Shown: one piece after another, positions 7,394-31,685 of the stretch
Layout: each line of letters begins with the position of its first letter
Position numbering within the stretch: position 1 is the stretch's first letter
From: a virus
Taxonomy: Duplodnaviria > Caudoviricetes
Reading direction: 5' to 3' (one strand)
DNA: 41,862 nt
Virus record (IMG/VR): IMGVR_UViG_3300031910_000021
Coordinates: 1-41,862 of that record
The notes under the pieces: model-generated
The model's database searches: none
What the model was told of the DNA's origin: nothing
The model's input: the letters and a program-made list of their open reading frames with translations, nothing else
Made by a program: the position numbers and the translations under genes

Positions 7394-8051
7394 GATCGGC
7401 AGACTCTTCCTCACCGGCTGGTTCTGGCTCATCTTGGCCGGGGGGCTGCTTCTAACGTCATCACTCTTCCTGGCCTATGGCAGCACACCAGCACCCAAGC
7501 CAGAGCCAGCCGTCGTAGTAGGGCCGGCGGGACAGGCAGGGCCAGCGGGGCCAGCAGGGCCGGCGGGACCACCAGGACCGAAAGGGGACAAAGGTGCAAC
7601 CGGAACCGCTGGAACCAACGGAAGCTCAAGCTCAGGCAGTGGAGGCGGAACTGGAAGCACAGGAGCTACGGGCCAGACGGGAGGCGTGGGAGCAACAGGA
7701 GGAACAGGGGCCACCGGCTCAACGGGTCAGGCAGGAGCGACGGGCGGCACTGGAGCAACGGGCGCAACGGGCGGCACTGGAGCGACGGGTGGGACGGGTG
7801 CAGTTGGCCCGCCTGGAAGTACCGGACCTCCTGGCCCTCCTGGGCCTGCCGGTGCCACAGGTGAGACCGGACCCGCCGGGGCTAGTGGTATTCAGGGTCC
7901 AGCGGGGGCTGTAGGGCCACGAGGGCCGCAGGGGCCAGAGGGACCACCGGGGCCGGCAGGGATGACGTGCCCACCTGGATATACCGCTCAAGCCTTCACC
8001 ATCAAGGAGAAAGGCAGCAGCATCAATATCTTCGGATGCGTGCAGAGCTAG
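7377..8051 (+). CDS. Membrane-anchored collagen-repeat protein (lysis cassette, spanin-like position)
   Basis: N-terminal TM, long GXY tract, C-terminal CPPGY...FGCV disulfide module. Confidence 0.7.
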
Positions 8052-15154: not shown

Positions 15155-15556
15155 TCAGTCGGTGACGACTTCGGGAGACCGCCTCTTCTGGATACCGCCC
15201 GAGCGGAACACCTCCTCGTAGCGGACCTCAGCCTGGTCAGTAAATGAGCCGTGGGCGAACTCACCCAGCATTGTGGGGGCGTCGATCCAGGCTGCCGAGC
15301 CGACGTGTGCCCGCTCCTGCATGGTCTCGTCGGGCATCTTGAACTGCACCTGAGGGTCGACGTGATTTATGCGGCCAGGGGCGCTGACCATGAACTCGAT
15401 CATGCCCCGCTGGAAGTCGGTGGGAATGTCGGTGTCAGTACTCAAACCCTCCTCGAATCGCAGCGGGCCGCGCCCACCTGGGGCGTTCGGCCCCATGGTC
15501 TCGTCGTAGGCGTACCGGCCGCGTTCGGGAAACTGCGGTTCGGGGGCCAAACTCAT
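15155..15556 (-). CDS. Conserved-looking virion hypothetical protein
   Basis: GGAGG RBS; GPLRFEEG..TDTDIP...ERAHVGSAAW; first gene after the late promoter at 15587. Confidence 0.65.
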   Translation of the reverse strand: MSLAPEPQFPERGRYAYDETMGPNAPGGRGPLRFEEGLSTDTDIPTDFQRGMIEFMVSAPGRINHVDPQVQFKMPDETMQERAHVGSAAWIDAPTMLGEFAHGSFTDQAEVRYEEVFRSGGIQKRRSPEVVTD

Positions 15557-15594: not shown

Positions 15595-15702
15595 CTGTGC
15601 GGCACTTCCCCCCTAGACCACCCGACGGGCCATGCCTCGCCGTACCTCGTCGTGCCGAGCCAGTCCCCATCTCCCCTCACCAAACCGACGTACCAGGGTG
15701 AA

Positions 15703-15729
15703 CACGCCTCCAGCTAGCCTGGAGGCGTG
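15703..15729. terminator. Hairpin downstream of terL
   Basis: CACGCCTCCAG-ctagc-CTGGAGGCGTG, perfect 11-bp stem, no U-tract. Confidence 0.45.
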
Positions 15730-21324: not shown

Positions 21325-22192
21325 GGATCTGCTGGAGCACATCGGGATCGAGGACATCCGGTCCCTGGGCGTCGAGGTGCAGGCGCGCTGCCCCATGCAC
21401 GAGAAGAGGACGGGGGAGCGAGAGCGCCGGCCAGACCATTGGTCGATCAACCGGCACTCAGGGGCCATGCACTGCTTCTCTTGCGAGTACTCAGGCTCCC
21501 TGACCAGGCTCATCATCGACGTAGCCGGCGTGAGCCTGTGGGACGCCAGGAAGATGATCCGCCAGTTCGATGTTGATCTCTCCGATGATGAGGCCCCCTG
21601 GGAGCCACCCATCGGCATGGCGGTGGAGAGTCGGCTGGAGGAGTTCGGGCCACCCCCGCCCCGTGCCCTGGCCCGCCGGCACCTGACCCCCCAGGTCTGC
21701 GACCGATTCCAGCTTCGGTGGGACTACGAGGAGGCTGCCTGGGTTATCCCCATCTTCTCCCCAGGTGGTGAGAAGTGGGGCTGGCAGACCAAAGGGGTCG
21801 ACATCCGCAACCATCCCCCTGGCATCAAGAAGGGCCGCACCTTGTTCGGCCTTGACGTGCTCGTCTGGAACCGGCCCCTCCTGGTGGAGAGTCCATTGGA
21901 CGTGGCTTACTTGGACACCCTGGGCATCCCCGCCGTGGCTGCCTTCGGCTGCCAGGTGTCCGACATGCAGATGAAGCTCCTGGTGGAACGGTGTGACCGC
22001 CTGACCCTGGCCCTGGACGACGACCGCGCCGGGCGGGCCGAGATGCGCCGGCTCCTCAAGGAGAAGTGGCACCATCGCATCCCCATGACCGTGTTCAACT
22101 ACCAGGGCCTGAGTGGCAAGGATCCCGGCGAGCTATCACCGGCCGAGGTCCGCAAGGGCCTGGAGTACGCGGTGCCGGCGGTGTTCTGGTGA
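21317..22192 (+). CDS. dnaG: DNA primase (zinc finger plus TOPRIM)
   Basis: CPMH...CFSC; LVESPLD; LALDDDRAG; KDPGE. Confidence 0.9.
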   Translation: MIEDLLEHIGIEDIRSLGVEVQARCPMHEKRTGERERRPDHWSINRHSGAMHCFSCEYSGSLTRLIIDVAGVSLWDARKMIRQFDVDLSDDEAPWEPPIGMAVESRLEEFGPPPPRALARRHLTPQVCDRFQLRWDYEEAAWVIPIFSPGGEKWGWQTKGVDIRNHPPGIKKGRTLFGLDVLVWNRPLLVESPLDVAYLDTLGIPAVAAFGCQVSDMQMKLLVERCDRLTLALDDDRAGRAEMRRLLKEKWHHRIPMTVFNYQGLSGKDPGELSPAEVRKGLEYAVPAVFW

Positions 22193-22369
22193 GGATCACT
22201 TGTGTGGACGCCCACCTGGAGGACGGCACCATCCGCCACTTCACTATGGAGGAGTTGTTCCTGTATCTGCGTGAGCAGGCGCAGGTAGAACGCCAGAAGG
22301 TAGTGGACCGGATAGAGGAACTGAAGGGCGATGTTTAAAGGCACCCTCATCCCGGCGGTGTTCTGGTGA
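22175..22369 (+). repeat. 18-bp direct repeat CCGGCGGTGTTCTGGTGA (22175-22192 and 22352-22369)
   Basis: Exact copy of the primase 3' end flanking a small ORF. Confidence 0.85.
22189..22338 (+). CDS. Small hypothetical protein
   Basis: GTGA overlap with the primase stop; 49 aa. Confidence 0.5.
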   Translation: MRITCVDAHLEDGTIRHFTMEELFLYLREQAQVERQKVVDRIEELKGDV

Positions 22370-22527
22370 CCTTTGATCGTGACCTGGCTGCCTTTCAGAA
22401 ATGGCTCGCCAGACAAGTTCGGGAGGCCGAGAAGCACCAGGGACATGTCAGCGATGAATATCAGCAGGGTTGGCTCGACGCCATGAATGACGTGCTGGCG
22501 GTGCTGGTAGAGGAGTTCGGGGCATGA
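22366..22527 (+). CDS. Small hypothetical protein
   Basis: MTFDRDLAAFQKWL...; ATGA overlap with the SNF2 gene. Confidence 0.5.
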   Translation: MTFDRDLAAFQKWLARQVREAEKHQGHVSDEYQQGWLDAMNDVLAVLVEEFGA

Positions 22528-24098
22528 CCTTCAAGGGGTCGTTGTACCCCTTCCAGGAAGAAGCGGTCGACGCCATGATCGACATGCAACACCTCCTGGT
22601 GGCCTACGAGATGGGCCTGGGCAAGACAGTTATCACTATCGCCGCGGTAGAAAAGCTGATCGAGGACGGCCAGGTGGGCGGGGGGCTGATCATCTGCCCT
22701 GCCTCCATCAAGTTGCAGTGGAAAAGGTTGATCGAGGACTTCGCCCCCGACGCCAACGTGATCGTGGTCAACGGCACAGCCCCTCAGCGCGAGGCCCAGT
22801 ACCAGCGGTACAAGCGCGGCGAGGGTGAGTACTGCATCATCAACCCCGAGCAGATGGTCAACGACTGGGAGATAGTCTCCCGGCTGCCTAGGGACTTCAT
22901 CGTGGCCGACGAGGCGACGTGGTTCAAGAACTTCAAGCCGCAGCGGTCCAAGAAGATCAAGCGGCTCAAGGCCACCTACCAATGGGCCTTGACGGGCCAG
23001 CCAGTGGAGAACCGGGCCGAAGAGGTCTACTCGATCATGTCCTGGATCAACCCCACCGTCCTGGGCAACTTCAAGACCTTCGACGCCGCCTTCATCAAGC
23101 GTGATCCCTGGGGCCGGGTCAGGGTCTATCGGAACCTGCCCACCCTGCACCGGCTCCTGTCCGAGCACATGGTCAGGCGCACCAGGAGCGAGGTAGCCGA
23201 CCAGCTACCCGCGGTAGTGGCACCGGCACCCATCCTGGTGGAAGCAGACCAGGGCACCAGGATGCTGTACCGGCGCATGGTGCATGACCTGGAGGCCGAA
23301 CTGGCTGAGGCCATGAACACCTGGGGGAACTTCAGCCTGAGTGGCTTCTACCGCGGTGAAGAGCAGGGCGAGGCCCGCGGTCGGATCATGTCGAAGATTA
23401 CCTGCATGAGGATGTTGGTTGACCACCCCGAGCTACTGCGGCTCTCCGCGGCGCACTACCGCGGGGTACTACCTGGCAACCGCATGGGCAGCGAGTACGC
23501 CCAGGAGCTACACGCCGCCGGCAGGCTGGAGGGCCTCAAGAAGGCTCCCAAGCTGGATGCCTTGGTGGGGACAGAGGACAAGCCAGGGCTGATCCGAGAG
23601 ATCCTGGAAGCCCACCCCGAGAACAAGATCGTTTTTTTCAGCTTCTTTAAGGACATGCTCGACATCGTGGCCGAGCGCACCAGGAGCCTGACCAAGTCGG
23701 TGCTCTTCACCGGGGCCGTGTCGATCACCAACCGGGACAAGGCCAAGCAGACCTTCGCCACCGATCCTGACACCCGACTCTTCCTCTCCTCCGATGCTGG
23801 CGGGATCGGATTGGATCTTCCTGTAGCAAACTACCTCATATCGTATGATTTGCCCTGGAGCAGCGGAGCGTTCGCCCAACGCCAGAGCAGGATCATCCGC
23901 CTGAGCAGCAAGTTTCCCCAGGTCACCCTGCTGACCATCCAGGTCGCCGGGAGCATCGAGGAGTACCAACACGCCTTGTTGGCCCAGAAGAAAAAGGTGG
24001 CGGAAGCAGTGGTCGACGGCAAGGGGATTAATACCCGAGGAAATCTGACGCTGGATCTCAGAAGCCTGACCGATTTTTTGGGGACCAGTCAGATATAG
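22524..24098 (+). CDS. SNF2-family helicase
   Basis: YPFQ, EMGLGKT, IVADEA, LTGQPVEN, SSDAGGIGLDL, YDLPW, QRQSRIIR. Confidence 0.93.
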   Translation: MTFKGSLYPFQEEAVDAMIDMQHLLVAYEMGLGKTVITIAAVEKLIEDGQVGGGLIICPASIKLQWKRLIEDFAPDANVIVVNGTAPQREAQYQRYKRGEGEYCIINPEQMVNDWEIVSRLPRDFIVADEATWFKNFKPQRSKKIKRLKATYQWALTGQPVENRAEEVYSIMSWINPTVLGNFKTFDAAFIKRDPWGRVRVYRNLPTLHRLLSEHMVRRTRSEVADQLPAVVAPAPILVEADQGTRMLYRRMVHDLEAELAEAMNTWGNFSLSGFYRGEEQGEARGRIMSKITCMRMLVDHPELLRLSAAHYRGVLPGNRMGSEYAQELHAAGRLEGLKKAPKLDALVGTEDKPGLIREILEAHPENKIVFFSFFKDMLDIVAERTRSLTKSVLFTGAVSITNRDKAKQTFATDPDTRLFLSSDAGGIGLDLPVANYLISYDLPWSSGAFAQRQSRIIRLSSKFPQVTLLTIQVAGSIEEYQHALLAQKKKVAEAVVDGKGINTRGNLTLDLRSLTDFLGTSQI

Positions 24099-24108
24099 TT
24101 GGCTCCTA

Positions 24109-24130
24109 CCTGCTCTACTCTTAGAGCAGG
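24109..24130. terminator. Hairpin bordering array 1
   Basis: CCTGCTCTA-ctct-TAGAGCAGG, 9-bp stem. Confidence 0.6.
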
Positions 24131-24583
24131 GATCCGAATCGACAAGCCAGTCCAGTCCAGATCCATACCGACGACCCCTGCCCCGTCTGGTCATCTCGCG
24201 TCGGGCCGCCCCTACCCGCCTCCAGCCGACATGCCTACCCGCACCATGCCCGATCTAGCCACGCCGACAAACCCTCCCAAGTCACGCCGTATCCCATCCC
24301 TCCGAGCCGACATACCCGACCTTGTCCTTCCGGCTCACACCGACATGCCTAACCGGACCATGCCGAGCCGAGCCATCCCGACTCGTCAGCCCAGGCCATG
24401 TTTCATCCCAGATCAGTCCGCGCCAGATCGACGTTCCATGCCGCACCCGATATCAAGCTTGACCCACCCGACTTGCCAACTCTCGATCCAGCCACCTCCA
24501 TTCTGACCGACACGCCCTGCTGCACCCTACCCATCCAAGCCGACTAGCCCCGCCTAAGCCTAGCCGTCCCATGCCGACGAACC
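24131..24583. ncRNA. Pentamer-periodic putative guide array 1: 11 units of (NN-RCC)n-GAC
   Basis: Example unit: gaccc ctgcc ccgtc tggtc atctc gcgtc gggcc gcccc taccc gcctc cagcc GAC. The minus strand reads GTC(GGY-NN)n. Transcribed strand unknown. Confidence 0.75.
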
Positions 24584-24596
24584 AAAGGAGAAAATA

Positions 24597-25325
24597 ATGC
24601 CGAGAACACCAGCAGAACCCGTCGAGGAAATCCCCGTCGCCCGCCTCAAGGAAGACCTTTCCCTCTATCCCCGTCGCAGGATCGACACCACTAACATCTC
24701 CACCCTGGTGGAGGCATATGAAGCCTTCAATGCCGGCGAGGGGGACGAACCTCCCCCAATCATCGTCACCCGCGGCAAAGTCATTGTCGACGGCGTCCAC
24801 CGGGCCAGGGCCAAGCGGAAGGTCTACGGGGATGACGCCACCATCTCCTGCATCGTGCGTCACTACCGGACCAAGGCCGAGATGTTCTACGACGCCTGCA
24901 TGCTCAACAGCGGGAGGGGTCACGACCTGTCGCGATGGGATCAGCTTCATTGTGTCGAACTAGCACGGGAACTCAAGCTGCCCATCGAGCGGCTCGCCAA
25001 GGCCCTGGGCTGGACTTCTGAGCGGCTCCTGTCCTTCAGCGAGAGGCGGGCCACCCAGACCCTGAGCGGCAAAAAGACGCACCTCAAGTCTTCTCTCCTG
25101 TCCCAGAAGAACGGCCCCATAAGCGAAGAGGTGGAAGCGATCAACGAGACACCTGGCGGTGTCGACGGCATGTCACCGGCCTACCACGCCCGCATGCTGC
25201 TGATGCACCTCCAGGCCGACAGTATCCCCTACGAGGCCAACCTGGCTCACAGGTTGGCTGACCTGGCAGCCGCCATCGAAGAGTGGCTGTCCAACTATGG
25301 GGCCGAAGAAGAAGAAGCCCAATAG
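24597..25325 (+). CDS. ParB/Srx N-terminal domain protein
   Basis: AAGGAG RBS; LYPRR...PPIIVT...IVDGVHRARA...LNSGRGHDLS. Confidence 0.8.
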   Translation: MPRTPAEPVEEIPVARLKEDLSLYPRRRIDTTNISTLVEAYEAFNAGEGDEPPPIIVTRGKVIVDGVHRARAKRKVYGDDATISCIVRHYRTKAEMFYDACMLNSGRGHDLSRWDQLHCVELARELKLPIERLAKALGWTSERLLSFSERRATQTLSGKKTHLKSSLLSQKNGPISEEVEAINETPGGVDGMSPAYHARMLLMHLQADSIPYEANLAHRLADLAAAIEEWLSNYGAEEEEAQ

Positions 25326-25337
25326 AAAGGAATCACC

Positions 25338-26117
25338 ATGTCCGCATCCGATATTTTCAAGTTCCAGTCCCGGTGGACGACCTACACCGGATCCCTCCAC
25401 ATCAACACCCTGGTCGGTGGCATCCCCAAGGACGGGGCCACCATCCACGCCTTCGTCAAGGCCCGCATCACCGACAACGCCTCCGAGATGAGCCGCATTG
25501 CCGAAGAGACCATGGTCGAAATGGGTCTTGACCCTGTTCTCGACAAGGATGAACTGAGCGCCGCCCAGGTCGATGAGATCGTGGACAAGGTGTCCAAGAA
25601 GGCCGTGGCCGGCAACGGCTTCAAGCAGATCAACGGTGAACTGGTCTGGGAGGGTCGCTGTCTCAAGGCTGCCCTGAACGAGGCGTGCAATGCCCTCTAC
25701 CCAGGCGTGGAATCCTTCCCCGGCAAGCCCGACAAAACCAAGAAGGGCCTCAAGAGCTACTTCATAGAGCGGGTGGAAGTCGTTGACTACTACATCCCCC
25801 TGGGCCGCACCGAGCCTGACATCAAGGGCGAGGAGCGCATCAAGCACATCAGCGGCCCCCAAGGCAAGCGCAGCGCCATCAACCTCGTGGACGTATGCAC
25901 TGACCTGGACATCACCTTCACCATCAAGGTGCTGAACGACTGGGTGCCACAGGAGTTGTGGCAGGAGCTTTTTGAGTACGTCGAGTTGGGTGGCGTATGG
26001 GCTGACCGCGCCCGCGGTGACGGGCGTTGCGAGCTAACCTCCTGGGAAAAATCGACCGACTCCAGGAGCGTCACCCGCTCCAACGGCAAGCGCCGGCTTG
26101 CCACCACCGCGTCATAG
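25338..26117 (+). CDS. Stand-alone Cas7/RAMP-like protein
   Basis: N-terminal strand TYTGSLHINTLVGGIP; ELVWEGRCLKAAL (cf. RAMP p.ipgssLKGal); LDITFTIKV; C-terminal G-rich loop GGVWADRARGDGRCEL (cf. GlGa.Rs.G.Grf). Confidence 0.75.
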   Translation: MSASDIFKFQSRWTTYTGSLHINTLVGGIPKDGATIHAFVKARITDNASEMSRIAEETMVEMGLDPVLDKDELSAAQVDEIVDKVSKKAVAGNGFKQINGELVWEGRCLKAALNEACNALYPGVESFPGKPDKTKKGLKSYFIERVEVVDYYIPLGRTEPDIKGEERIKHISGPQGKRSAINLVDVCTDLDITFTIKVLNDWVPQELWQELFEYVELGGVWADRARGDGRCELTSWEKSTDSRSVTRSNGKRRLATTAS

Positions 26118-26121
26118 CAGG

Positions 26122-26145
26122 GAGGGGCGGCTTAGACCGCCCCTC
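26122..26145. terminator. Hairpin bordering array 2
   Basis: GAGGGGCGG-cttaga-CCGCCCCTC, 9-bp stem. Confidence 0.6.
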
Positions 26146-26909
26146 ACACCAAACCAAACCGACTTGCCGTTTTCCTTGCCGTGCCTGACCCGATCACGCC
26201 TAGCTGACTCGCCAACCCATGTCTCCCCCAGCCGACTCGCTCCGACAACCCTGACTACCCGACCCTGGCCGTGCCCGCTCAGGCCCTGCCGACTAGCCTC
26301 ACCCGTCCCGGCCCCGTCCTGCCAACCCTTGCCGTGCCGACACGCCTGCCCCAGCCATCCCTCGCCGTTACGGGCCTCGCCTAGCCGACTATCCCCGCCT
26401 TCCCGTGCCAAGCCGCTCCGACATCTCCGGCCCGACCCCCTCAAGCCAATCCGACCCGCCATCCCCGTTCTTTTCTCTCTCAGGCCCAGCCGACTCGCCA
26501 CGCCTCGTCCCCCCCTTCCCGGCCTACCCCACCCTGACCGACCCGCCAAGCCTGCTCCGACCCAGCCGCGCCCTCGCCAGACCTTGCCATGCCGACACTC
26601 CAGTCCCTGCCCCCCTTGCCCCGAACCACCCCAGCCGACTGCCCTTGCCGCATCACGCCGACCCAGGCCAGACCTCGCCAAGCCGACTCGCCCATCCCTG
26701 TCCACCCATCTCATCCCGACTTGCCGTCCCGCGCCACGCCCCGCCGAGTCTTATCCCGCCGAGTCATGCCGACTCGCCACGCCGCGCCGGCCCGTGCCGC
26801 GCCTCGCCTCGCCCCGCCAAACCGACCCACCAATCTCCTGCCCAGTCAACCCGTGCCCCGCCGACTCGCCTCGCCGTGTCATGCCCTGCCCTTGCCTCGC
26901 CTAGCTGAC
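26146..26909. ncRNA. Pentamer-periodic putative guide array 2: about 18 units of (NN-RCC)n-GAC
   Basis: Example units: tagcc tcacc cgtcc cggcc ccgtc ctgcc aaccc ttgcc gtgcc GAC acgcc tgccc cagcc atccc tcgcc gttac gggcc tcgcc tagcc GAC. ORFs here are low-complexity artefacts. Confidence 0.8.
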
Positions 26910-26914
26910 TAACC

Positions 26915-27271
26915 ATGACCTTTCGCGGCCCTCAGTACCTTTTCTGCGGCAGCCGCCTTACCTCAGACACCCTGATCCTCCGACTCCTTCTCACGGGCCT
27001 GAACTCCCAGGCCCGTGAATGGAGCGAGGTCATCACCATCCAGGACAATGGCACCCTGGAGGGGTTAGAACACGAGGTGAGCATGTTCCGCCACCTGAAG
27101 CACCAGGAAGTAGGGGAGTGGTCTGATCCCAACGTCGTACTGTGCTTCATGGACCGGATGTCCATGAACCGCGGTACTGAGCGTCTCCTGCAACGTGCTG
27201 AGACAGAGAAGCGCCCCTGGTTCGTGATTGGCAACGCCAGCGACCGGAGGCAATCCCCGGTGGAGGGTTAA
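26915..27271 (+). CDS. Hypothetical protein, SLOG/YspA-like
   Basis: YLFCGSR N-terminus; PNVVLCF...RGTERLLQRA...PWFVI. Confidence 0.5.
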   Translation: MTFRGPQYLFCGSRLTSDTLILRLLLTGLNSQAREWSEVITIQDNGTLEGLEHEVSMFRHLKHQEVGEWSDPNVVLCFMDRMSMNRGTERLLQRAETEKRPWFVIGNASDRRQSPVEG

Positions 27272-27301: not shown

Positions 27302-27769
27302 ATGGCAACCAAGACCAAGACCAAGCCGAAGCTGGATCTCAAGGGCCTGCGCCAGGAGGTGCGCGAGTGGTACGCCCTCAAGCGTCAGGATGCCCTGCTG
27401 GCACCCAAGCTGAAGAGAGGCACCGACCGGTTCAAGGAACTCCTGGGAATATATGGAGAGAAGGATCCCTCAGACGGCTCTATTTATCTGGATCTGGAAG
27501 AGCCGATGGGGGACCAGCGCATCCAGTTCTTGAAGAACCTGTGCGTGGTGTCCAAGAACATCGACGTGGAGGTGGCCCAGGAAATCCTGGAGTCAAAGGG
27601 CATCTGGGAGGAGATGTCGGAAGAGATCCGCGTCCCCGATGAGAGCCGGATCGCCGCTGCCTATTACGACAACCGCCTCAACGATGACGAGTTCGCCCGC
27701 ATGTTCCCAGCAGTCACTTCATATCGCTTCTTCCTGTTGGACGAAGATCGGAAGCCAGTTCGGGCATGA
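27302..27769 (+). CDS. Hypothetical protein
   Basis: 155 aa; TACCCT -10-like box 7 nt before the ATG (leaderless geometry). Confidence 0.7.
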   Translation: MATKTKTKPKLDLKGLRQEVREWYALKRQDALLAPKLKRGTDRFKELLGIYGEKDPSDGSIYLDLEEPMGDQRIQFLKNLCVVSKNIDVEVAQEILESKGIWEEMSEEIRVPDESRIAAAYYDNRLNDDEFARMFPAVTSYRFFLLDEDRKPVRA

Positions 27770-29321: not shown

Positions 29322-31685
29322 ATGGTGCCGGCAAGGCCCGCCGTCGTGTCGGAAAGGGGAGGGGGCCGGTACCCGCCACCGGCCCCTTCCCTCAACATCC
29401 CGAAGTGTGACCTTGTCTGGATCACACCGGGACAGACTGCGGGGGACTGGAACTACGGGGGCGGGGCGCAACATCGGCGCTGCATCCTGCTCATCGACCA
29501 CGAAGGGGATCACGATACTGGCGAGGGGGAGCGGGACCGCAACGTGGTCAACCGCTCCAGGTACAAGTGGGGGGCACGCGGCTTCACCACCGAGCAGGTC
29601 TATCGATCCGAGACCATCAGGATCGAATGGGAGGCGCGGAACCGCCCCCAACCCATCAAGAAGCTCAAGGACTTCCACGAGTTTGAGTCCTGGGTGGAGG
29701 CCGGCTGCCCAGGTGTGCGCCGGCCCGTCGAGCGGGGCTGCGGCCCCATCGCCACCATTCGCACCATGGAGCAGCTAAGAGAAGTGGTGGAGATCTACTC
29801 GGCATTTTCCGAGTTCGCCTTCGACGTAGAGACCCGCGGTAGCCGGCGGGTTCGCATGCTGCAACCGGGTCGGAGAGTGCTATCGAGATACGCGGAACAG
29901 ACCTCGCCCTGCCTGGCCTGTGGCAACCCCATCTCTTCCAGGCGGCGGGCCTACTGCTCCGACCTATGCCGCAAGACGGCTGACAAGGACAAGCCGGCCC
30001 TCGACACCCGAACCAACGAGGTTTGGTGTCTATCCCTCGCCGGCCCAGGCGTGTCTCACGTCATACCCATGGGGCACCCCGACAAACGCCAGCAGCTACA
30101 TCGGGCCGATGTTTTTGAGGCCCTGCGCCCGTTGTTCTTCTCCAGCCGGCGCAAGATCAATCAGAACGTCGGGTTCGACTTGTTGAGCATCGCCAAGTAC
30201 TACGAGGGCAAGATCCCACCCCCGCCCTACGCCGACATCATGACCATGGTGTTCTTGATCAACGAGAACCTTCAGTCCTACCGGCTGGAGGCCCTCACCA
30301 AGCACTACCTGGGCTACAAGTACGCCGAGAAGTTGGGCGAGGAAGCGTACAACGTCGAGTGGAAGCGGGCCATGAGGTACTCGATCATCGACGCCAAGAT
30401 GGCCTGGATGCTGTGGTGGAAGCTCCACCACGTCCTGGAGGACAAGCCGAAACTGGGCAACCTCTTCCGCCTGGAGATGGACGTGCTTCGGGTACTACTC
30501 GCCATGAAGCAGACGGGGGCCTACGTCGACATCGAGGGGTTCCGGACCCTGAGGCCCCAGTTGGAGACCCAACTGGCTGAGGTCACCAGCACCATCCGCG
30601 ATCTCGGCTTCACGGGCAATCTCAACAGCACCCACCAGCTAGCCAGGTTCCTCTACGACGAGAAGAAGCTGCCCTGCCTGTGGATGACCGAGACCGGCCA
30701 GCGGTCCACCGCGGCCAAGGCCCTCAAGTCCCTGGCTCGCCGGCACCAGGAGCCGCGCAAGATCCTGGAGTACAAGGACGTGAACAAGCTGCTCAGCACC
30801 TATGTGGCCGGGTTCATCCCCACCATCGATGACGACAGCCGGATCAGGGCCAGCTTCAACCAGGCCGTTGCCCGAACGGGCAGACTCTCGTGCAGCGGTC
30901 CCAACCTCCAGAACATCCCAGCCAGGTACAAGGAGTCGGTCGAGGCCACCCTGATACGACAACTTTTCGTGGCCCCACCTGGCCGGCTACTCATCGTGGC
31001 CGACTACAGCCAGATCGAGCTACGCGTCCTGGCCCACATGACCAGGGACAAGATGCTGATGTACGCCTACACCCACGGTCTCGATCTCCACACCCAGACG
31101 GCCAGCCTGGTCTACCGGGTGCCCCAGGGCGATGTCAGCGTCGAACAGCGGGCCATCGCAAAAAACTGCAACTTCAACTTCGCTTTTGAGGGCGGATTTA
31201 CCAGGGTCATGGACATGTCAGGCATCGGTGAGGCACAGGCTCGCGCCGTCTACGACGCCTGGCACCGGGCCTACCCCGGTGTCAAGAGGTGGGGGGCCGT
31301 GACCAAGCGGTCCTGCCTCCAGCACGGCTATGTGGAGACCCTCTATGGGCGAAAAAGACGTTTGAAAGACATCTCTTCCCGAGACCCCAAGGACCGCAGC
31401 TATGCCGAGCGCCAGGCGGTCAATCATCCAGTACAAGGCACCGCGGCTGACCTGGCGAAGATCGCCATCGTCCGCGTCCACCAGGCCCTCCAGGAGTTCC
31501 ATGCCGATCTCGTGCTTCAGATCCATGACGAGTTCGTGATCGAGTGCGACGAGGGGGAGGTGGACGAGGCCATACCGTTTATCAGAGAGGCCATGGAGGA
31601 CATCCGCCTGGATGACCGGCCAGTCCTCGATGTACCCCTGGAGGTCACCATCGGGGTCGGTAAGAACTGGAGCGAGGCGAAATGA
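29322..31685 (+). CDS. polA: Family A DNA polymerase (3'-5' exonuclease plus polymerase); start uncertain
   Basis: ExoI FDVET, ExoII NVGFDL, ExoIII YSIID; TGRLSCSGPNLQNIP; motif A ADYSQIELR; motif B; motif C QIHDE. Confidence 0.95.
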   Translation: MVPARPAVVSERGGGRYPPPAPSLNIPKCDLVWITPGQTAGDWNYGGGAQHRRCILLIDHEGDHDTGEGERDRNVVNRSRYKWGARGFTTEQVYRSETIRIEWEARNRPQPIKKLKDFHEFESWVEAGCPGVRRPVERGCGPIATIRTMEQLREVVEIYSAFSEFAFDVETRGSRRVRMLQPGRRVLSRYAEQTSPCLACGNPISSRRRAYCSDLCRKTADKDKPALDTRTNEVWCLSLAGPGVSHVIPMGHPDKRQQLHRADVFEALRPLFFSSRRKINQNVGFDLLSIAKYYEGKIPPPPYADIMTMVFLINENLQSYRLEALTKHYLGYKYAEKLGEEAYNVEWKRAMRYSIIDAKMAWMLWWKLHHVLEDKPKLGNLFRLEMDVLRVLLAMKQTGAYVDIEGFRTLRPQLETQLAEVTSTIRDLGFTGNLNSTHQLARFLYDEKKLPCLWMTETGQRSTAAKALKSLARRHQEPRKILEYKDVNKLLSTYVAGFIPTIDDDSRIRASFNQAVARTGRLSCSGPNLQNIPARYKESVEATLIRQLFVAPPGRLLIVADYSQIELRVLAHMTRDKMLMYAYTHGLDLHTQTASLVYRVPQGDVSVEQRAIAKNCNFNFAFEGGFTRVMDMSGIGEAQARAVYDAWHRAYPGVKRWGAVTKRSCLQHGYVETLYGRKRRLKDISSRDPKDRSYAERQAVNHPVQGTAADLAKIAIVRVHQALQEFHADLVLQIHDEFVIECDEGEVDEAIPFIREAMEDIRLDDRPVLDVPLEVTIGVGKNWSEAK

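Follow-up and report, generated by a model that had tools for sequence, protein, structure and literature searches.

A phage VIPR cassette carries a predicted guide against a helicase motif of related phages

VIPR is a CRISPR-related RNA-guided DNA-binding system that was first described in 2026 (10.64898/2026.04.26.720920). It works with the Vipr protein, one accessory gene and pentamer guides that skip one base at the wobble position, and it represses rival phages; natural targets were called at an 80% cut-off, and the published phage type II VIPR represses only (10.64898/2026.04.26.720920). For comparison, we used the type II systems of Escherichia phage SUSP1 and a Pseudomonas fulva prophage, as far as the available parts of the sources describe them (10.64898/2026.04.26.720920; 10.64898/2026.04.26.720927; 10.64898/2026.10.15.759431).

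A two-gene phage locus flanked by pentamer arrays

The analysed window is the entire 41.9-kb virus record IMGVR_UViG_3300031910_000021 (41,862 nucleotides), which encodes terminase, portal, capsid, WhiB, DnaB, primase, SNF2 helicase, PolA and RecA. It is probably a fragment of a larger phage genome, because near-complete relatives measure 114-118 kb. The presence of WhiB and the homologues of its RAMP protein in an Acidimicrobiaceae MAG (52%) and in Streptosporangiales genomes suggest an actinobacterial host. Among the matches listed, 24 soil metagenome runs hold the phage, and no RNA run is found among them. We also observed collagen-like tandem repeats of 9, 18, 27 and 45 bases in a tail-region gene (7520-7954). 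Between the primase and SNF2 genes lies a short insert (22192-22524) flanked by a 22-base sequence from the primase stop region, which occurs twice (~22173 and ~22352).

A 2.8-kb cassette is inserted between the SNF2 helicase gene (22524..24098, + strand; Pfam SNF2-rel_dom, E 2e-34), which forms its left border, and the gene at 26915. It consists of array 1 (24139..24578), a ParB-like gene (24597..25325, + strand), a RAMP-fold gene (25338..26117, + strand) and array 2 (26159..26909). In relatives, this junction is empty or filled with other inserts, and a RAMP gene is found there only in identical copies of the phage. Array 1 is identical in all 6 IMG/VR copies and array 2 likewise in 6 (three partial). 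Performing a profile search, we found a vipr homologue in 0/10 relative records (3 near complete, some fragments). Seven relatives carry differing inserts downstream of SNF2 (~1.5-3.4 kb in those with both borders present), marking an insertion hot spot.

The vipr-like gene encodes a 259-aa protein with a stand-alone RAMP/Cas7 fold and a glycine-rich C-terminal loop. Its AlphaFold2 model (pLDDT 80) gave type III Csm and type VII Cas complex subunits as the best Foldseek matches (E ~1e-6, TM ~0.4). The protein matched three viral RAMP-like models (viral RAMPs at E 2e-12) and had no PDB sequence match. We found 46 homologues of the gene, with the glycine-rich loop conserved across 45 sequences; GenBank phages hold one distant vipr homologue. 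The vap-like gene, presumably the accessory one, encodes 242 aa with a ParB-like N-terminal domain, in which the motif DGVHR can be read. It weakly matched phrog_1033 (E 1e-4) and ESM Atlas ParB_N clusters (score 0.98, TM 0.70-0.76), and a Pfam search gave no match; a ParB-like partner gene also exists in 4 homologous RAMP loci. No cas family was found among the 26 window proteins scanned, and no CRISPR repeats or Rfam matches in the window. A hairpin at 24110..24129, located after the SNF2 stop and before array 1, overlaps TACTCTTAG, a possible -10 element similar to the TACCCTTAG that precedes the gene at 27302; the sigma-70 scan gave no site. Another hairpin (26123..26146) lies between the vipr stop and array 2.

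The window holds 29 units of five-base period: 11 head-to-tail units of 5-11 steps in array 1 (with (C/T)CGAC delimiters, five units having 1-2 extra bases), 17 in array 2 and the solo unit A0 (15622..15689; 12 steps). Their design is (NN + NYC)n, closed by a GAC delimiter that shifts the phase, and the units follow one another head to tail. Of 228 triplets, 101 are GCC and 220 have the NYC form (GRN on the opposite strand), which is related to GGY and not strictly GGY; in the GG-strand reading, about one-third end in a purine and about one-fifth have A at the second place. One or two extra bases occur in 11/29 units (A1.0, A1.6, A1.7, A1.8, A1.10, A2.0, A2.2, A2.7, A2.9, A2.15 and A2.16). In relatives, the corresponding intergenic region showed no such solo unit. 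The unit sits inside a promoter-like intergenic motif, intact in relatives, and is followed by a strong hairpin (~15700-15727). Three homologous RAMP loci have very long multi-block arrays, spanning several kb with dozens of units.

The locus shows several traits of VIPR: a stand-alone RAMP-fold protein that has a thumb and a G-loop and is not part of a CRISPR locus, two genes in a phage flanked by long intergenic arrays, pentamers alternating a related triplet with a variable NN, and targets matched at a 1-base wobble skip on either strand. Judged from its sequence, the locus is a VIPR system, and its predicted mechanism is the one already published, not a new code. Traits of class 1 CRISPR-Cas are absent from the locus; it has no identical direct repeats with contiguous spacers and no multi-gene cas operon, and a zero-skip reading gave no match.

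Like type II VIPR of SUSP1 and Pseudomonas fulva, the system is a phage-borne stand-alone RAMP with one accessory gene and flanking pentamer arrays, and it shares the 1-base wobble skip, the targets on both strands in rivals and a self match lower than the rival match. Unlike SUSP1, it reads NYC and not GGY on the sense strand, and it has no detectable sequence link; an hhalign comparison to the SUSP1 Vipr, a gene picked by its position between GGY arrays, gave a probability of 0.1%. Several further features set it apart. Its triplets depart from the strict GGY pocket, its units are arranged head to tail, have a GAC delimiter and lack a per-guide tail, and its accessory gene is ParB-like, a term absent from the available parts of the VIPR texts. 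Moreover, the targets are core replication genes of sibling phages, homologous to those beside the cassette, and not satellites or lysogeny regulators, and some self matches lie above 80%. The 'staggered' VIPR arrays likewise have abutting, tail-less units that shift phase from one to the next (10.64898/2026.04.26.720920, fig. S18 legend). Departures from GGY have already been reported for non-canonical 5-mer VIPR arrays, according to the accessible part of that report (10.64898/2026.10.21.760802).

Unit A1.1 and the SNF2 motif of related phages

Unit A1.1 (24168..24225) comprises a CCGAC delimiter and 11 NN/triplet steps. Cutting 24173-24230 as 2+3, we recovered the dinucleotides given in the preliminary description (GA CT CC TG AT GC GG GC TA GC CA), with the triplets CCC GCC GTC GTC CTC GTC GCC CCC CCC CTC GCC. 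The preliminary description had proposed that the dinucleotides spell codon positions 1-2, with the wobble base skipped, and that they target the homologous gene of a related phage; the predicted target is the kin SNF2 motif DLPWSAGAYAQ. The phage's own site (23847..23879, + strand; DLPWSSGAFAQ) is the best 1-base-skip match in the window, with 7/11 dinucleotides and 17/22 bases, in agreement with the four dinucleotide mismatches described before. It departs from the family motif by Leu as TTG, Ala to Ser and Tyr to Phe. This self match is marginal, as 17/500 dinucleotide-order shuffles reached at least 17/22 in the window.

The exact 22-base pattern, suggested earlier as a search, had no match in IMG/VR, JGI metagenomes or GTDB genomes. 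Its fifth dinucleotide, AT, fits no found target; the targets have TC (17/24) or AG (7/24) at this step. When the fifth dinucleotide was left free, all 24 IMG/VR matches were the in-frame SNF2 motif DLPWSAGAYAQR at 20-21/22, with varying skipped bases. The relaxed pattern gave a similar outcome in metagenomes, where 22/23 matches, overlapping the IMG/VR contigs, were the SNF2 motif in frame. The commonest SNF2 motif is DLPWSAGAYAQRQ, seen in 39/120 homologues among the matches listed.

We also fetched 17 non-identical SNF2 loci with unrelated peptide patterns, not using the A1.1 motif. The site was present in 16 of them, at 20/22 in eight, 19/22 in six, and 18 and 17 in one each. In 43 related-phage records (1.10 Mb), a set partly selected with the A1.1 pattern and enriched around SNF2, the best match was 21/22 and the best of 500 shuffles was 19, all shuffle controls being run on the fetched records only. 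In an earlier set of 35 records, a skip of 1 base gave 21/22, and skips of 0, 2 or 3 bases gave 16-17/22. Conservation at the site is 0.97 at codon positions 1-2 and 0.68 at position 3. The gapped reading and a target in the homologous kin gene were thus supported.

The marginal self match by itself could arise if a GC-rich repeat happened to look like a widespread helicase motif. However, 0/500 shuffles reached 20 or 21 in relatives, all 24 collection matches fall on one motif, and a second unit, A0, reaches 24/24. These kin matches refute an accidental origin, and we regard its probability as negligible.

A relative bearing the 20/22 SNF2 site was found in 4/4 tested soil runs that hold this phage (at least 95% identity, 21-30/30 bins per run), with one contig spanning the site. 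In the same soils (4 runs compared with window 23600-27000), other contigs are partly like vap, vipr and the arrays; therefore, related VIPR systems co-occur there.

At the SNF2 site, the phage itself is the worst match, having 5 mismatches to A1.1 against 1-4 in 33 homologues. A 96%-identical sibling that lacks array 1 at the SNF2 junction is also at 17/22. Because kin match at 20-21/22 and the own copy at 17/22, A1.1 is predicted to silence close relatives while sparing self, which we consider likely. A/T-rich third-position patches in SNF2 (23785-23845 and 24020-24098; 9/20 codons versus 0-6 elsewhere) adjoin the A1.1 target site and the cassette border, and co-occurring siblings differ there. 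One close SNF2 relative (89%) has 828 aa, ~300 residues more than the family, possibly by an intein or a fusion.

We estimate a probability of about 80% that A1.1 is a VIPR guide RNA against the helicase motif of kin. The RAMP-fold protein would coat the guide RNA, bind kin DNA and silence the rival's gene during co-infection. The eleven dinucleotides would pair with codon positions 1-2 of the conserved motif in related phages. By analogy with the SUSP1 work, one Vipr would occupy each five-base step, pairing two bases and skipping one, and repression would proceed without cutting. The ParB-like partner may strengthen the block.

A1.1 could instead be a decayed or spent guide that formerly targeted kin but has little effect today, given its mismatch at position 5 and the co-occurring escape lineages. 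The misfit of AT at step 5, the 17/22 allele in a co-occurring sibling and the extra bases in 11/29 units speak for such decay. Yet 20-21/22 exceeds the 80% threshold for natural targets, the arrays are unchanged among the IMG/VR copies, and target-bearing kin co-occur. We find a spent guide distinctly improbable.

Further guides, their neighbouring targets and the phage's own alleles

Testing all 29 units on the 43 records, we find that five (A0, A1.1, A2.11, A2.15 and A2.16) beat 100 shuffles (p 0.01-0.02), each converging on one peptide. Because that set is enriched around SNF2, we tested the units again on only the 8 largest records; these five units and, weakly, A2.9 scored above each of 40 shuffles. 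The five matching units are all wobble-aligned, two reading the coding strand and three its complement, as expected for DNA targeting. Their sites show a conservation of 0.90-0.97 at codon positions 1-2 and 0.68-0.82 at position 3, and skips of 0, 2 or 3 bases gave no signal for units matching at skip 1.

The predicted target peptide of A0 is FEEGLSTDTDIP (kin up to 24/24, self 21/24). In PolA, the predicted targets are FDLLSVAKY for A2.11 (26635-26682; kin up to 17/18) and PNLQNIP for A2.15 (26822-26860; 13/14), while that of A2.16 (26861-26904) is YD(K/N)RITDD (kin up to 15/16). The A0 and A2.16 targets lie in small genes. A2.15 and A2.16 match kin in frame despite their extra base, once it is ignored, hinting at bulge tolerance or inactivation. 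A2.9 (26538-26591) is a weak candidate in DnaB, with 4-8 mismatches of 20 and ~0.7 false positives expected among 29 tests. The other 24/29 units have no firm target, several being short or having additional bases. We discarded A1.4 (p 0.05), whose five matches converge on no single site, and A1.6 (16/18 in two relatives and self) was not significant. The exact 20-base patterns of A2.14 and A2.13 had 0 matches in IMG/VR. None of 26 guides from 39 homologous loci beat shuffles or found a target in 3.1 Mb, a set without those loci's own kin.

Each found target is a homologue of a gene beside its guide, at a distance of 165 bases for A0, 290 for A1.1, 760 for A2.16 and 3.5-4 kb for the PolA targets. 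The cassette targets, 4/4, are no more than 5 kb away from the insertion site, a range that takes in 19% of the conserved windows of a near-complete relative (P 0.0013), and 2.9% of such windows lie within 1 kb of the A0 site; these cut-offs were set post hoc, after seeing the matches, and P covers the assigned targets among the 29 units. The simplest reading of the linkage is selection that keeps guide and resistant allele together when kin recombine. We propose that the cassette is a mobile insert and that guides would persist best beside the phage's own resistant alleles, because kin recombination would then seldom part a guide from its immunity.

The linkage could also reflect RNA-guided homing or marker exclusion, in which the complex, perhaps via its ParB-like partner, nicks, cuts or stalls replication at genes next to the empty cassette site of a co-infecting relative, and repair copies the cassette together with the resistant alleles. 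The proximity of the four cassette targets and of A0 to its target gene copy would fit, as would the insertion hot spot at the SNF2 junction. Precedents are the T4 free-standing endonucleases, whose cuts fall hundreds to thousands of bases away from the endonuclease gene and which co-convert the flanks, as the consulted part of PMC2988022 describes. However, family searches found no nuclease family (GIY-YIG, HNH and the like) in either cassette gene, the partner matches ParB-like families only weakly, and the published phage type II VIPR represses only. In addition, selection against self-targeting recombinants also explains the linkage, its cut-offs are post hoc, and guides of homologous loci lacked close matches in the 4-6 kb flanking them. 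We consider homing unlikely.

The own alleles at these sites were compared with those of kin. The own A0 site (15422..15457, - strand) encodes the same peptide as the perfect targets and is mismatched only via TTG (Leu) and AGT (Ser). The own A2.11 site (30174..30200, + strand; DNA polymerase FDLLSIAKY) is at 12/18, with TTG TTG AGC, and the own A2.16 site (27665..27688, + strand; YDNRLNDD) at 13/16. The own A2.15 site (30900..30920, + strand; DNA polymerase PNLQNIP) is at 13/14, no better or worse than in relatives. Self has 6 mismatches to A2.11 (homologues 1-5), 3 to A0 (0-3), 3 to A2.16 (1-4) and 1 to A2.15 (1 in 16/17); it is thus also the worst match at the A2.11 site and tied worst at A0. 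With self matches of 21/24 and 13/14, A0 and A2.15 lie above the 80% cut-off for natural targets (10.64898/2026.04.26.720920), and the own A0 site may still be bound by its guide.

Own Leu codons are TTG at 4/5 guide positions and at 47/331 comparable positions (P 0.002, a small and post hoc test), and own Ser codons are AGY at both guide TC positions. A combined Leu and Ser Fisher test (6/7) was set aside because the Ser rows follow the consensus of relatives, and the A1.1 step-5 serine, not itself an escape, may be among them. The self deviation stands out at the SNF2 site only (rank 5/489 windows; 48/631, 46/121, 42/131 and 328/635 at the others). Because it lies beside an A/T-rich third-position patch, the own SNF2 site may be a recombined piece and not a targeted escape.

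Guides that weakly bind the phage's own replication genes to time their expression, with the better kin match being the ancestral sequence, would account for self matches of 21/24, 13/14 and 13/16 and for cognate sites nearby. Against such self-regulation speak the SNF2 and A2.11 sites, where self is the poorest match, the A0 site, where it ties for the poorest, and the own rare-codon swaps, which fall on guide-read positions. This makes it very unlikely in our view, and silencing of kin remains the preferred reading, with resistance gained partly, we suppose, by silent Leu/Ser codon swaps at positions 1-2.

The preliminary description had also held the guide to be insensitive to third-position synonymous escape. 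Such immunity holds for third positions only; at positions 1-2, Leu, Ser and Arg can change silently, as in the phage's own genes. Synonymous differences at first positions are frequent in the own copies, so the code does not guard against every synonymous escape. The October VIPR preprint, in its available part, states that escape requires amino-acid-determining changes. The own-allele codons suggest otherwise, silent Leu/Ser/Arg changes at positions 1-2 being possible.

Guide strand and biological meaning

In 39 loci of the clade, 68/70 runs read NYC (CC-rich) on the vipr-sense strand, 54/70 after GAC. The SUSP1 arrays are the opposite, with GGY on the vipr-sense strand. The CC strand of the arrays is likely transcribed, as arrays lie between co-oriented genes and often extend up to the following ribosome-binding site, and on that strand one locus carries a clear sigma-70 site immediately upstream of its array. 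Hexamers of the -10 type precede arrays in 10/46 cases on the CC strand and 3/46 on the GG strand.

The RCC triplet is the exact reverse complement of GGY. At the vipr-proximal array end downstream of vipr, 13 actinobacterial prophage loci carry the delimiter-bracketed hairpin motif GCGAC-GCCG-N-CGGC-TAGCC, which is absent from this window; the conserved hairpin would form a 3' tail on the GG strand. The guanine-reading G-loop residues D177/W178 of SUSP1 align, by eye, with Ala/Asp in this RAMP. The sigma-70 scan, folding z-scores and the G-T wobble direction of mismatches favoured neither strand. We give the CC and the GG strand about even odds of being the guide, and the predicted targets are identical either way.

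The cassette resembles the T4-like free-standing homing endonucleases SegF, SegG and SegB, known for intronless homing and marker exclusion, in its predicted attack on a kin site hundreds to thousands of bases away, with a presumably resistant own allele, as far as the consulted part of the source goes (PMC2988022). Unlike those protein-guided nucleases, it is predicted to recognise DNA by RNA. It is doubtful that a mobile VIPR cassette acts here as an RNA-guided counterpart of intronless homing, attacking empty-site flanks in siblings and driving itself and its silently recoded alleles, perhaps with the CC strand as guide. A literature search found no paper that joins VIPR, homing and vrRNA. 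In the available VIPR text, we found neither the homology of all identified targets to genes beside their guides nor synonymous first-position changes in a carrier's own copies, the silent recoding discussed above, nor CC-rich vipr-sense arrays; the supplementary tables may already classify this clade.

The locus provides natural, co-occurring targets for a divergent VIPR clade. Its matched alleles (24/24 versus 21/24; 21/22 versus 17/22) allow the measurement of mismatch tolerance, which the available VIPR text does not give. Should the guide be the CC strand, there are Vipr proteins that prefer another scaffold, a point of importance for engineering. The published view of escape has a loophole, as six-codon residues open a silent route that the carrier's own genes appear to take. 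Finally, the linkage between guides and resistant alleles is relevant to the acquisition and spread of such guides.
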